In this document: piece after piece, positions 2,084 to 63,984 of the stretch
Numbering within the stretch: the stretch's first letter is position 1
Layout of the letters: every line of letters begins with the position of its first letter
NCBI GenBank assembly: GCA_036156175.1
Contig: JAYZVA010000090.1
Span: 1,609-65,608, forward strand
Reading direction: 5' to 3'
Source: Myxococcota bacterium
GTDB lineage: Bacteria; Myxococcota_A; UBA796
Length of the DNA stretch: 64,000 nt
Position numbers and translations under genes: made by a program
The notes under the pieces: generated by a model
The model's input: the letters and a program-made list of their open reading frames with translations, nothing else
What the model was told of the DNA's origin: nothing
Databases searched by the model: none

Positions 2084-2701
2084 TCACCGGCCGGCCTGGG
2101 CGCCCCACAACTGTTGGAGCCGATGGTCGCGGCCGCATCCCGCGCGGTAGCTTTTGTACCGCGTCGGGTTCTTTTTGTAGAAGTCTTGGTGGTATTCCTC
2201 GGCGAGCCAGAACACTTGTTTGGGCAAGATTGGGGTCACCACCGTCCGCTTGAGGGTGCGCTCGGCCCGGGTCTTGCTGACGCCCGCCGCGGCACGCTCT
2301 TCCTCCGAGCCCACGAATACGGCCGTCCGGTACTGGTCTCCGCGGTCGCAGAACTGACCGTTTGCCTGCGTTGGGTCCACGTTGTGCCAGAAGGTGGAGA
2401 GCAGCTCTTCGTACGTGATGGTGGCCGGGTCGTACACCACTCGAATCGCTTCGAAATGTCCCGTCTCGCCGCCCGCAACTTGGCGGTAGGTCGGTCCCAC
2501 CTCCGGACCGCCGGTGTACCCCGACTCCACGGCGACCACCCCTGATCGCTTCTCGAACGGGGGCTCCATGCACCAGAAACACCCGCCGGCAAAGATCGCC
2601 TCGGCGAGGCCCGCCTTGGGGGCCTCGGCCGCCACCGTGGGCTCCGCCGCTTGCAGCGGTTCGCCGCAGCTCAACCACAGCACGAGCGCGGCCCCAATCA
2701 C
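2084..2701 (-). CDS. msrA: Peptide-methionine (S)-S-oxide reductase MsrA, with signal/lipobox
   Basis: GGCFWCMEPPFEK...GVVAVESGYTGG...YHQDFY motifs. A GTG start (rc 2699-2701) overlaps the msrB stop in a GTGA junction. The N-terminus reads VIGAALVLWLSCG. Confidence 0.9.
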   Translation of the reverse strand: MIGAALVLWLSCGEPLQAAEPTVAAEAPKAGLAEAIFAGGCFWCMEPPFEKRSGVVAVESGYTGGPEVGPTYRQVAGGETGHFEAIRVVYDPATITYEELLSTFWHNVDPTQANGQFCDRGDQYRTAVFVGSEEERAAAGVSKTRAERTLKRTVVTPILPKQVFWLAEEYHQDFYKKNPTRYKSYRAGCGRDHRLQQLWGAQAGR

Positions 2702-3180
2702 GGTTTGGCCTCTTTGGGCTGAAAGTCGAGAGCGTTGCCGTTGATGCAGAACCGTTGCCCGGTGGGGGGCGGCCCATCGGGGAACACATGCCCCAGGTGG
2801 CCGCCGCAGCGGTTGCATAAAATTTCCGTCCGGCTCATCCACAGCGAGTTGTCTTCGGCATCGGCCAGCGCGTTTTTCTCAATGGGCCGGGTGAAGCTGG
2901 GCCACCCCGTGCCCGACCGGAACTTGTCGTCGCTGGAGAACAGCGCGAGGCCGCAGCCGCCACAGGAATAGATTCCAGGGGCCTTGTTGTCCCAGTACTT
3001 TCCGGTGAACGCACGCTCCGTGCCTTTTTTGCGGAGGATGCGGTATTGCTCGGCTGTGAGGCTGCTGCGCCACTCGGCATCGGTCTTGGTCACCGCATCT
3101 GCGCGCGGCGACACAAAGCCGTCGGCGGCCTCCGAAGGGCCGCACCCCAGTGCCAGTGCCAAGCTGACCAGCCGTTTCAT
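2698..3180 (-). CDS. msrB: Peptide-methionine (R)-S-oxide reductase MsrB, predicted lipoprotein
   Basis: SCGGCGLALF...GTGWPSFTRPI...CNRCGGHLGHVFPDGP...RFCINGNAL. The likely start MKRLVSLALALGC (lipobox) has GGAGG 7 nt upstream. Confidence 0.9.
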   Translation of the reverse strand: MKRLVSLALALGCGPSEAADGFVSPRADAVTKTDAEWRSSLTAEQYRILRKKGTERAFTGKYWDNKAPGIYSCGGCGLALFSSDDKFRSGTGWPSFTRPIEKNALADAEDNSLWMSRTEILCNRCGGHLGHVFPDGPPPTGQRFCINGNALDFQPKEAKP

Positions 3181-22463: not shown

Positions 22464-24335
22464 ATGGCTCTTCGACTGGTGGGATTCACGCTGCTGTTTG
22501 GGTGCACGGCTGCGCCCGAACAACCGTGCATGGATGGGTACTCACGGGGGGCCGATGGTCGGTGCATCAGCGAACCCGATGACGTCGCAAGCGAGACCCC
22601 GTCCGATCCGGCATCATCGGACACCGGCGAACCCATCAGCCTGGTGCGCGTGGAGTGCGCTCCAGACTCTCCCACCAACGAACCCAGCATTGAAATGATC
22701 GGGAAATACGACACCGACGACAACACCGAGCCGCCCGGATTGCTGATCGAGGCCCTCGACGGTGTGGTGGACCAAGAACGCTTCTGGGTCGTGGGCCAAG
22801 GCGGACTCTTGAGCTTCGACATCAGCGGCGATGTCCCGGAACTTGGCGACGTCTTCGGCGGCATGAGCGGGCGCTTCTACCGGCTGATGCTGGTTGATCA
22901 CGACCCGCCACTGGTCTACGCCACCCACCGGGATTCAGGCCTTCAAATCGTGGACCGCTCCGACCCATCCGACCTCCGGCTTGTGAAGACGGTGACGAAA
23001 GACGGCCTGGGCGGAATGGTTCAGGTCGGCGACCGGGTCTACGCCACGCAGCATGACGGAACGCTTGTGGTTTTTGACGCCACCGATCCGACCGCACCCG
23101 AGGAGCGTGCATCGATCGAGGCGCCGGGCCACCCGTGGAATGTCGTGGAAACCAACGGCTGGCTGTACACTGCAGACAACACCCGCGGGGTGGGCGCATT
23201 CAGCCTCTCCGACCCCGACGAGCCCGAGTTTGTCGGCCACACCGATCTGGGCAACGGCGTCCTGGACCTGGCGACGGACGGCACCCGGCTGTTCGCCGCG
23301 GCGGGTTCAGCCGGCCTGATCGTCCTCGACCTCAGCGACCCGTCTTCCCCCCGAGAGAGTGCCCGACTGTGGACGGGCTCGCCTGTGGTTGATGTCAGCG
23401 TATCGGACGCCATGGTCTGGCTGGTGGACCATGAAGCCGTGTGGGCCGTGGATGTTCGCCAGCCCGACCAGCCAACCGTGATTGGGCGCATGGAGACGCC
23501 CCGATTCGCGATGTCGGTCTGGGCCGAAGGAGACGAAGCATGGGTGGGTGACTGGACCGCAGTCGAAGGGTACCGAGCGCACCCCGAGCGCGCAGCCAGC
23601 ACGATTGTCGCTCACCCCGACACCCTGCGTCTGGCCTCCGACCGCCATGACGCCACCGTGCGGCTGGTCAATCTGGGGCCCCACGACGGCGCTCTTCTCC
23701 GCTGGGATGCCAACGAGACGGACGCCACCATCGGCGTGTCCTCGACCACGGTCGGCGCGCAGGACGGCGTGACGATCGCTGTGGACTGGCCCGAATCCAC
23801 TGGCAACGGGCAGGTCTGCCTCTTGACCAGCGACCCTTCCAACCCCACCGTCTCCATCAATGTGCAGCGTTCCGACCAACGGCTCAGTGTGCCGGTGGGG
23901 ACCGCAGCACCGGACTTTGAGCTGCCCACGCTCGATGGCGAGCGCCTGCGGCTCAGCGAGCAACTTGGGCATCCCGTGCTGCTCGTCTACTTCGCAACCT
24001 GGTGACCCGTGTGTCCGTCCGAGGTCTCGGACATCAGCGAACACATGTGGCGCGACTACCGCGACGATGGGCTGCGGGTGTGGGGCATCTCATCCACCGA
24101 CCGCGAAGCCGACCTCCGCCGATTTCGAGACCAACTCGGCGTTGACTTCCCCATTCTCTTCGATGCGGCCGGGGATGTGCACGCGCAGTGGCTGCAGGAA
24201 CTGGCGTTTCACTCTGCGGCCTACCCACAGGACTGGCTGATCGACCCCGAAGGACGCGTGGCGTACGCCAACAATCGCTACGAACCCGATGAGATCCGCG
24301 CGTTGCTTGACCAATGGTTTGACCGCGAGCCCTGA
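22464..24335 (+). CDS. Candidate selenoprotein. Domain order: lipobox, LVIVD-repeat beta-propeller, Ig-like domain, C-terminal TlpA/redoxin-like thioredoxin-fold domain with a U-P-V-C motif. The TGA at 24003-24005 is read as Sec.
   Basis: ORFs 22464-24005 and 24009-24335 are in the same frame and are separated only by the TGA. Read-through gives ...APDFELPTLDGERLRLSEQLGHPVLLVYFATW-[TGA]-PVCPSEVSDISEHMWRDYRDDGLRVWGISSTD..FPILFDAAGDV...DPEGRVAY, the canonical redoxin F-W-A-x-W-C-x-x-C block. A SECIS-like hairpin follows. LVIVD-type repeats are present (LQIVDRSDPSDL, LVVFDATDPTAP, GAFSLSDPDEP, LIVLDLSDPSSP). Confidence 0.7.
24009..24046 (+). promoter_or_regulatory. Candidate bacterial SECIS stem-loop directly downstream of the in-frame TGA
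   Basis: Upper stem GTCCGA (24017-24022) pairs with TCGGAC (24027-24032), with loop GGTC (24023-24026). A possible lower stem GTGTGT (24009-24014) pairs with ACACAT (24041-24046). The apex GAGGUCUC resembles the E. coli fdhF SECIS apex (GCAGGUCUGC, from memory). It sits 21-24 nt from the U of UGA. Confidence 0.55.
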
Positions 24336-62559: not shown

Positions 62560-63984
62560 ATGATGAGGCATGCGATTTGGGTCGTGGCAGCGGCCATGGG
62601 GTGCGTCGAGGCGCAGTACGCAACCACCGAGCCGCCGGAGACCTCCGGTGTGGCAGACACCGGGAGCGCGCCCGCCACGCCGGTGGATGGCCAGGTGGCC
62701 TTCCAGGGCACCTACAACGCGCCGGATGCCCTTTTGTTCGAATGGACCATGGACGACGGCGAAACGGCCGAACTCCGCGTCAGCGGACCCGATGGCTTTG
62801 AGGCCATGGTGCCCGGACTGAGCGGCTCGACCCACACCCTTCAAGCGCTGGCCGACGGCGAGTACCACGCAACGGTGACGGTGCGCCACGCCGACGGCAG
62901 CCAATCCGCCGCGTCGCTCACCCAGCTGGTCGGCACCAACCGCTTGGTCTACCGCTCCGAGGTGCCGCTCGACCGCGCGATGGATGTGTGGGGGACCGGG
63001 GACGTGGCCGTGGTTGGTGGCGGAACCAACAGCCGAACCAGCGCGTTGGTGGTGGACATCTCCACCGCAACCCAACCCGACGGGCTCCACACGATGACCG
63101 GAATCGGGTTCGTGAGGGACGTGAAGGTCTTCGATGATCTGCTCTTCACCGCGGTGGACCCAAACTCCGACGGGTGCGAGCTCTGCGATGACATCGGCGT
63201 ACGAATCTACGAGTTCAGCAACCCGGCCGAACCGAAGCTGCTGTCCACCATCGGCTCGCCCGCCTGGGCGGTGCACAACATGACCTACAGCAACGGTCAC
63301 CTGTACCTGGCCAGCATGGCCGAGGGGTCCGTGGCCGTCTTTGACGTGCGCGACCCGGCCGAACCGACCCGCGTGGCCACGTGGTACTCGCAAGAGGCCC
63401 CCGGCTTTGCCCACGGCCCGGGCGGCTCCACCCACGACATGACCGCCCAAGGCGACCGGTTGTATGTGGCCCACGTGACCGGCTTCAGCATCGTCGACAT
63501 CGCCGATCCCACCAATCCAACGACCTTGTCCGATACCCGGGTCAACATGGGCATGCACAACGTGTGGCCCAACGCGGATGGCACGCGGCTGGTGGGCACC
63601 CAAGAGATCTTCGGGGGTGCGCTGTCCCTGTGGGACATCTCGGACCCCGAGAACATCGCGTTGTTGGACAGCCGCTCAAACGGCGACGACCGCTGCGTGC
63701 ACAACGCGTACTTCGACGGCGACACCGTGTTCGCCGCCTGGTACATCGACGGCGTGTACAGCTTCACCGTCGATGACGACACGCTGGTGGAGACGGGACA
63801 CTACGACACCTACGACGGCGCCCCGCCGGCACCGCCCGACGGCGCACCGCCACCCGGACCGCCCATCGAGGGCGCGTGGGGTCTCTGGACGTACGGCGAC
63901 CACGTTGTGGTCGGCGACACCGAGCGGGGAATGGTCGTCGTGGACCACTTCCCGCGCGTCATCAAGCAGTCGTCCTACCGGTAA
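62560..63984 (+). CDS. LVIVD-repeat / choice-of-anchor-B-like beta-propeller lipoprotein
   Basis: Lipobox AAAMGC. Repeats: HNMTYSNGHLYLA...VAVFDVRDPAEP, HDMTAQGDRLYVA...FSIVDIADPTNP, LSLWDISDPENI, HNAYFDGDTVFAAWY. Confidence 0.75.
   Translation: MMRHAIWVVAAAMGCVEAQYATTEPPETSGVADTGSAPATPVDGQVAFQGTYNAPDALLFEWTMDDGETAELRVSGPDGFEAMVPGLSGSTHTLQALADGEYHATVTVRHADGSQSAASLTQLVGTNRLVYRSEVPLDRAMDVWGTGDVAVVGGGTNSRTSALVVDISTATQPDGLHTMTGIGFVRDVKVFDDLLFTAVDPNSDGCELCDDIGVRIYEFSNPAEPKLLSTIGSPAWAVHNMTYSNGHLYLASMAEGSVAVFDVRDPAEPTRVATWYSQEAPGFAHGPGGSTHDMTAQGDRLYVAHVTGFSIVDIADPTNPTTLSDTRVNMGMHNVWPNADGTRLVGTQEIFGGALSLWDISDPENIALLDSRSNGDDRCVHNAYFDGDTVFAAWYIDGVYSFTVDDDTLVETGHYDTYDGAPPAPPDGAPPPGPPIEGAWGLWTYGDHVVVGDTERGMVVVDHFPRVIKQSSYR

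Follow-up and report, generated by a model that had tools for sequence, protein, structure and literature searches.

The question raised by this locus is whether a TGA that separates two adjacent open reading frames (ORFs) is a stop at all, or whether it is read as selenocysteine (Sec) in the active site of a single, larger protein. The locus lies in a 64,000-nucleotide stretch of DNA from a Myxococcota bacterium (contig JAYZVA010000090.1, positions 1,609 to 65,608), hereafter called the window, in which all coordinates are given. A first-pass annotation made from the letters alone had described an ORF at 22464-24005 that ends at a TGA and is continued in the same frame. The letters confirm this (...YFATW-TGA-PVCPSE, followed by a stop at 24333-24335). 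The joined frame on the forward strand (22464-24335) runs from an ATG at 22464, through the internal TGA at 24003-24005, to a final TGA at 24333-24335. The gene, which is at present split into a 513-residue and a 108-residue ORF, thus has 623 sense codons, with the proposed Sec at codon 514, plus the terminal TGA. Around the internal TGA the codons are CTC GTC TAC TTC GCA ACC TGG TGA CCC GTG TGT CCG TCC GAG, which give the peptide ...LVYFATW-*-PVCPSE, or ...VYFATW-U-PVCPSEVSDISEHMWR when TGA is translated as Sec (U). We conclude that the two frames make up a single gene, that its product is a thiol-disulfide oxidoreductase, predicted to be exported, and that the TGA most likely stands for the active-site Sec. 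We put the probability that the UGA at 24003-24005 encodes Sec at about 0.93.

As for the region around the TGA, domain models treat it as a unit. When the TGA was translated as Cys, the joined protein matched the Pfam AhpC-TSA model (PF00578) with 90.4 bits (cut-off 26, E value 1e-25) over profile positions 1-123 of 124, and the Redoxin model (PF08534) with 59.9 bits (cut-off 26.6). Both matches span codon 514, in keeping with the earlier proposal that the joined ORFs form one redoxin/AhpC-TSA block. The domain predicted in this way covers residues 478-601 (23895-24266, forward strand). The closest solved structures by sequence are ResA and other TlpA-like extracytoplasmic thiol-disulfide oxidoreductases, with E values down to 4e-16. 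Alignments to these PDB sequences place the TGA on the first Cys of the CxxC motif, which is where the first-pass annotation had put it. The U-P-V-C motif (24003-24014, forward strand), or W-U-P-V-C with the preceding Trp, aligns to W-C-P-H-C of ResA (3c71_A), with U in place of the first Cys. Likewise, the Pro of A-Y-P aligns to the cis-Pro in the P-L-P-T-T segment of the ResA structure, and the family consensus described below retains the landmarks of the thioredoxin fold, including this cis-Pro position. Judged by domain models and by the active-site and cis-Pro alignments, the predicted C-terminal domain is a TlpA/ResA-like thioredoxin-fold oxidoreductase.

Within this fold, the domain shares several features with ResA, TlpA and DsbE (CcmG), which give its best PDB and NCBIfam matches (the best NCBIfam match being ResA): the W-C-x-x-C motif follows strand beta-1, its second Cys is followed three residues on by a Glu, the cis-Pro positions align (A-Y-P versus P-L-P) and, by prediction, the protein is exported. 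It differs in having Sec for the nucleophilic Cys, and it is not an orthologue of these proteins, since its NCBIfam scores are far below the cut-offs (63 versus 170 bits for the ResA model NF002854 and 27.9 versus 123 bits for the DsbE model TIGR00385). A peroxiredoxin identity was also considered and rejected: scores for the PrxQ, BCP and AhpC models are only 16-29 bits, where the cut-offs are 140-272, and the peroxiredoxin motif P-x-x-x-T-x-x-C/U is absent, the protein having F-A-T-W-U-P-V-C with Thr at position -2 and a CxxC partner. Finally, the ResA-like WAxxUGC selenoprotein model NF041054, which likewise describes a ResA-like fold using Sec, was rejected with 22.9 bits against a cut-off of 300, the motif here being W-U-P-V-C instead of WAxxUGC.

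The first-pass annotation had named one alternative, a recent TGC- or TGT-to-TGA mutation that cut a Cys-type redoxin and left a pseudogene with a decaying downstream frame. On a single sequence such a mutation could not have been dismissed, and gene callers take TGA as a stop, which gives truncated database entries, named NCBI records reading "hypothetical protein". We therefore turn to the homologues. When the joined protein was searched against 5.8 billion protein clusters, 41 of the 42 closest homologues (29-99% identity) were found to end exactly at ...[YF]F-A-T-W, with lengths of 455-546 residues, and those with named NCBI records are indeed "hypothetical protein". The only full-length one, P0014 (642 residues), reads F-F-A-T-W-C-P-H-C. 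We also scanned GTDB, with one genome per species, and recovered 79 loci (numbered with L below). Its seed was the peptide leading up to the stop, and a Cys-bearing query served for confirmation, so the scan is not biased towards TGA. It returned ...F-A-T-W followed by TGA at 66 sites in 63 loci from 52 assemblies, at 23-63% protein identity and never with TAA or TAG in place of TGA. With the window included, the internal codon is TGA in 67/67 members, while the genes themselves end in TGA (37), TAG (26) or TAA (4). Three homologues have Cys aligned to the UGA, namely P0014 (TGC) and the scan loci L052 (TGT) and L065 (TGC). The comparison of orthologs proposed at first pass thus yields a column of TGA, with TGC or TGT in rare homologues.

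The sequence beyond the TGA is conserved as protein. The residues that follow are P-[VQIA]-C, with Cys at position +3 in 67/67 members, and in almost all of them no stop interrupts the frame for the next 104-113 codons, up to a true terminator that in the window is the TGA at 24333-24335 (forward strand). Since dN/dS (the ratio of nonsynonymous to synonymous substitution rates) is saturated when all pairs are compared (median 0.64), 13 close pairs were used instead, and in 13/13 of them the post-TGA frame, hairpin codons excluded, has a dN/dS of 0.08-0.45, with third positions varying the most. This shows that the frame downstream of the TGA is under purifying selection, and the conservation in length and sequence for which the first-pass annotation had advised looking is present. 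In the window copy itself, Pfam coverage reaches the end of the domain, and private frameshifts or stops downstream of the TGA were looked for and none was found. The closest GTDB-scan relative of the window protein is only 39% identical. Locus L084 holds a 61%-identical syntenic relative, in which the genes upstream follow one another as in the window (YdjM, HAD, HSP90, IMPACT, YebC, two CoA-transferases and an L-type lectin). It shares the TGA, and its contig runs on for 24 bases before ending, far enough to include the first part of the hairpin described below. Because the TGA is family-wide, the downstream frame is intact and selected, and a syntenic relative has the same TGA, a recent nonsense mutation is excluded at the family level, and we give the pseudogene next to no chance.

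Alternatively, the TGA could be a genuine stop in a split protein, with a 513-residue propeller protein ending there and the 108-residue piece being made separately and reassembling with it. The codon after the Pro in the window is a GTG at 24009, which could serve as a start, and this is where the first-pass annotation had begun its second ORF. While the same-frame continuation from 24009 holds, the start does not: this GTG is the Val codon of U-P-V-C, and there is no conserved start codon, as only 11/67 members have ATG, GTG or TTG at this position, about 36% having Gln, Ile or Ala at +2. In 54/67 no in-frame start is met until 10-66 codons downstream, by which point the second Cys has been passed. 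Moreover, splitting the protein would cost it the CxxC nucleophile, and would leave unexplained both a stop that is always TGA and a covarying hairpin right after it. This possibility therefore receives hardly any credence from us, and we continue with the UGA as a Sec codon.

A hairpin of the selenocysteine insertion sequence (SECIS) type starts 11 nt after the UGA (24017-24032, forward strand). Its 6-bp stem is formed by GUCCGA (5' arm, 24017-24022) and UCGGAC (3' arm, 24027-24032), and its loop is GGUC (24023-24026). Codons +4 to +9, which encode it, are near-fixed at the synonymous level: CCG for Pro (40/42), TCC for Ser (55/61), GAG for Glu (66/66), GTC for Val (62/62), TCG for Ser (57/63) and GAC for Asp (61/62). 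Outside the hairpin, Val at -9 is encoded by GTG 29 times, GTC 29, GTA 5 and GTT 3, and five codons are in use for Ser at -16. In the ungapped alignment of the 67 sequences, 94.9% of pairing cells in the hairpin are paired, with 12 double-sided changes at 2/6 pairs (GC/CG/AU/UG at one and CG/GC/UA at the other). Values this high were reached in 0/500 shuffles, a count that is not a probability as the sequences are related, and registers slid along the alignment give only 19-53% pairing. The compensatory changes occurred in at least four or five separate lineages: C-G became U-A in L001 and G-C in L038, L040, L045 and L049, while the closing pair went from G-C to C-G in L006, L011, L017 and L025, at the cost of an Asp-to-Glu substitution, and is A-U in L024. 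The support for the 6-bp stem comes from these explicit pair counts and not from RNAalifold, which recovered only the 3 central pairs on the 42-nt alignment.

A further, lower stem (alignment columns 10-12 with 38-40) was considered and rejected, with 67% pairing and no double changes. We also observed that the second Cys of the motif (24012-24014) is encoded by TGT in 48/67 members despite their G+C-rich genomes (about 65% in the window), a bias for which the lower stem that would account for it is not supported.

In the Cys form P0014, the residues E-V-S-D are retained while the Val codon is GTG and the stem is down to 4 pairs, and no hairpin comparable to that of the family was found in the Cys forms L052 and L065. 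At this position, members outside the main Myxococcota group (L059, L061, L063 and L066) form hairpins with GUU-type loops on stems of another sequence, as does the one stand-alone, redoxin-only site, in L054 (site 3358). Across the 2.5 Mb scanned, the combination of open frame, TGA, stem and GGTC loop occurs 63 times, of which 59 are family sites, and the other 4 are all in frames that do not look coding. For comparison, the SECIS of E. coli fdhF (NC_000913.3) reads TGA-CACGGCCCATC-GGTTGC-AGGTCT-GCACC. The family hairpin has the same 11-nt spacing between UGA and stem and an identical apical A-GGUC-U, whereas its stem is a perfect 6-bp helix of unrelated sequence, without support for a lower stem. 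G23 and U24 of the fdhF loop are the bases that SelB contacts. According to published descriptions, the bacterial SECIS lies in the coding region directly after the UGA and has a small, G-containing apical loop (PMC1088965), and the family hairpin agrees with them in position, location in the coding region and loop. The Sec-containing (UxxC) thioredoxin-fold redoxin put forward at first pass is hence supported by a TGA-only column, Cys alternates, a conserved downstream frame and a SECIS-type hairpin.

Several observations weigh against Sec. The E. coli fdhF SECIS has a bulged U that is missing from the family hairpin. No Rfam family matched the window, whether it was searched in whole at gathering thresholds or over 23950-24120 with E values up to 10. 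Taken alone, the window hairpin is no more stable than shuffles (z = -0.23, in a sequence of 65% GC). As for the decoding machinery, ARAGORN detected no tRNA at all in the window and no tRNA-Sec among 67 related loci. When the window and the 79 scan loci were searched by tblastn with E. coli SelD, SelB and partial SelA (380 residues), the one match, to SelB, turned out to be a TypA GTPase in L015. These negatives cover about 64 kb of the genome from which the window comes and count only weakly. In this phylum Sec is in use, Anaeromyxobacter dehalogenans having 11 selenoproteins (PMC1794560).

These negatives bear on a third alternative, that the UGA is read but not as Sec, either through near-cognate read-through stimulated by the hairpin, with insertion of Trp or Cys, or through reassignment of UGA in this lineage. 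Downstream structures can stimulate read-through in some systems, and the Sec machinery was not observed in the window or related loci. However, most coding-like frames in the window have TGA as their ordinary stop, so that the genetic code is standard, and TGA also terminates 37/67 family genes, which shows that the codon is not reassigned. In addition, the site is a catalytic Cys position with Cys alternates, a Trp as CxxC nucleophile would inactivate the domain, and the hairpin has an fdhF-type GGUC loop at the same spacing as in fdhF. We consider a non-Sec reading of the UGA very unlikely. Elsewhere in the window, whose G+C content is 62-68% throughout, a scan for other coding-like read-through frames found none.

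The Sec domain would be the last part of a larger exported protein. The N-terminus, MALRLVGFTLLFGC (22464-22505, forward strand), combines a basic residue with a hydrophobic stretch and a lipobox, L-F-G-C, as in lipoprotein-type signal peptides, and its lipobox Cys14 is nearly invariant in the family alignment. We therefore predict an exported lipoprotein. Next comes an LVIVD-repeat beta-propeller, placed by family alignment at approximately 22689-23579 (forward strand). The LVIVD repeat model (PF08309) scores 45.8 bits against a cut-off of 20.2, and in the AlphaFold2 model of P0014, the Cys-form homologue, a propeller is predicted with high confidence. It is followed by an all-beta linker domain at approximately 23604-23873 (forward strand), probably an immunoglobulin-like sandwich. 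The corresponding residues in the P0014 model (about 400-490) are all strands with a high predicted local distance difference test score (pLDDT), and the domain has N-x-G and DP-x-x-P motifs, with conserved columns N403, G405, D457, P458 and P461. While the propeller and the all-beta domain of P0014 are modelled with a pLDDT above 90, its redoxin domain is poor (35-55), because most alignment rows end at the TGA. A Foldseek search with the P0014 model returned only generic propellers (WD40-type, designed 8-blade and BamB-type).

Taken together, these features suggest how the gene might work. The UGA at 24003-24005 would be decoded as Sec as in other bacteria, the mRNA hairpin 11 nt past it exposing a GGUC loop through which SelB-GTP-Sec-tRNA(Sec) would be brought to the ribosome. 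On this model, decoding would require SelB, and selenium would be built into the protein. The Sec would be the first residue of the U-P-V-C redox motif in the TlpA/ResA-like thioredoxin-fold domain, and the product would be an exported lipoprotein composed of a lipobox signal peptide, an LVIVD beta-propeller, an all-beta domain and a Sec-redoxin domain, in which the propeller could be the binding platform for a substrate. Its most likely role is that of an extracytoplasmic selenol/thiol reductase, acting on thiol-disulfide or selenenylsulfide bonds, although export, lipidation, reductase activity and substrate are all predictions at this stage.

How does this protein compare with known selenoproteins? 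Among predicted bacterial selenoproteins, thioredoxin-fold proteins with UxxC are the most frequent kind (PMC13188914; PMC1088965; PMC1794560), with the redoxin-type families first reported by Kryukov & Gladyshev (2004) and in PMC1088965, and the class has been catalogued since 2004-2005. [quoted passage not shown] The protein described here shares with these a PF00578/PF08534 thioredoxin fold, Sec in the leading position of UxxC, the existence of Cys homologues, and a SECIS hairpin that follows the UGA directly and has a small, G-containing apical loop. It differs from them in that the redoxin is the C-terminal domain of a lipoprotein of ~620 residues with an LVIVD propeller and an all-beta domain. 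The family may nevertheless already lie within one of the known bins, for which the published exemplars are WP_010940744.1, MGB1650493.1 and HEU0032618.1. The catalytic principle and the recoding mechanism are already known, and no principle of Sec decoding is changed.

The fusion of an LVIVD propeller to a Sec-redoxin in a lipoprotein nevertheless appears to be undescribed and uncurated. In the papers searched, we found none combining LVIVD with selenocysteine; a 2026 review makes no mention of propellers, lipoproteins or a periplasmic location; and none of the NCBIfam selenoprotein models fits the joined protein. The broader claim, that LVIVD-propeller/Sec-redoxin lipoproteins are an undescribed or uncurated selenoprotein family, extracytoplasmic, systematically truncated in databases, and spread widely, often in several copies per genome, among uncultured Myxococcota of mostly aquatic origin, is one on which we regard the odds as even. 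Should it hold, a substrate-binding propeller would present an envelope or extracellular target to a selenenylsulfide active site. The Sec reading of the gene itself would add an exported, multi-domain selenoprotein to a poorly known group of Myxococcota, implying a Sec trait and a need for selenium there. The closeness of the SECIS loop to that of fdhF suggests that direct expression in E. coli might work.

For annotation, the consequence is that the gene and essentially all its relatives are recorded as proteins of ~510 residues without a catalytic domain, whereas the correct product would have ~620 residues and an active-site Sec. Moreover, the family offers an unusually clean RNA element within a coding sequence, with six frozen codons, compensatory changes and decay after Sec-to-Cys conversion. 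It could be used to train bacterial SECIS detectors, Rfam being currently without coverage here. The outcome is a solid mis-annotation that can be corrected, together with a clean example, seen across the family, of a SECIS in coding sequence, none of which is surprising to a specialist.

Turning to distribution, the assemblies that carry the family are mostly labelled Myxococcota or Deltaproteobacteria, with one each of Calditrichia, Neomarinimicrobiota and Latescibacterota. Many of the metagenome-assembled genomes (L003, L007, L010, L015, L017-L019, L021, L030, L046 and others) have records titled Enterobacterales, Enterobacteriaceae, Cognaticolwellia or Rickettsiales, which is unlike the otherwise Myxococcota distribution and probably reflects a labelling error. 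Several genomes have more than one copy of the LVIVD-redoxin gene: tandem duplicates are seen in L013 (sites 101 and 1921) and L028 (sites 9636 and 11435), and up to four loci per genome are present (L018, L040, L041 and L055, all in CAZFLE01). The TGA and the hairpin are kept in every copy of these multi-copy genes. The genome CAJWOS01 has both a Sec form (L049; TGA, W-U-P-Q-C) and a Cys form (L052; TGT, W-C-P-A-C), the latter without the hairpin. In L007, from 6848, the post-TGA frame stays open for 484 codons compared with the usual ~107; either the usual terminator is missing or the next gene is fused.

The redoxin-only site mentioned above (L054:3358-3400, contig CAZRYF010000031.1) adds a second in-frame TGA, in the context ...LAYFATF-TGA-PIC, to a contig that also holds a family member. 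The frame is open for only 33 codons upstream of this TGA and for 107 downstream, and the site has a hairpin of its own (GGUCUGGA-GUU-UUCAGACC). It looks like a stand-alone gene for a TlpA-like UxxC selenoprotein, in which case Sec would be used in at least two genes of that genome.

Across the 63 loci, clustering of neighbouring genes revealed no conserved partner gene, and no cytochrome-c maturation or DsbD/CcdA gene as conserved neighbour. In the window, the gene is flanked by a divergently transcribed gene for a protein with an L-type lectin domain and by a convergent 149-residue ORF of unknown family, beyond which are genes for an HhH-GPD glycosylase and an M66/TagA-type peptidase. A second LVIVD-repeat protein is encoded at 62560-63984 (forward strand); it has 474 residues and a weak PKD match, with neither a redoxin domain nor an in-frame TGA. 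Finally, a gene at 2084-2842 (reverse strand) encodes a methionine sulfoxide reductase A (PF01625), a family that includes selenoproteins in some bacteria and is represented here by the Cys form (G-C-F-W-C).

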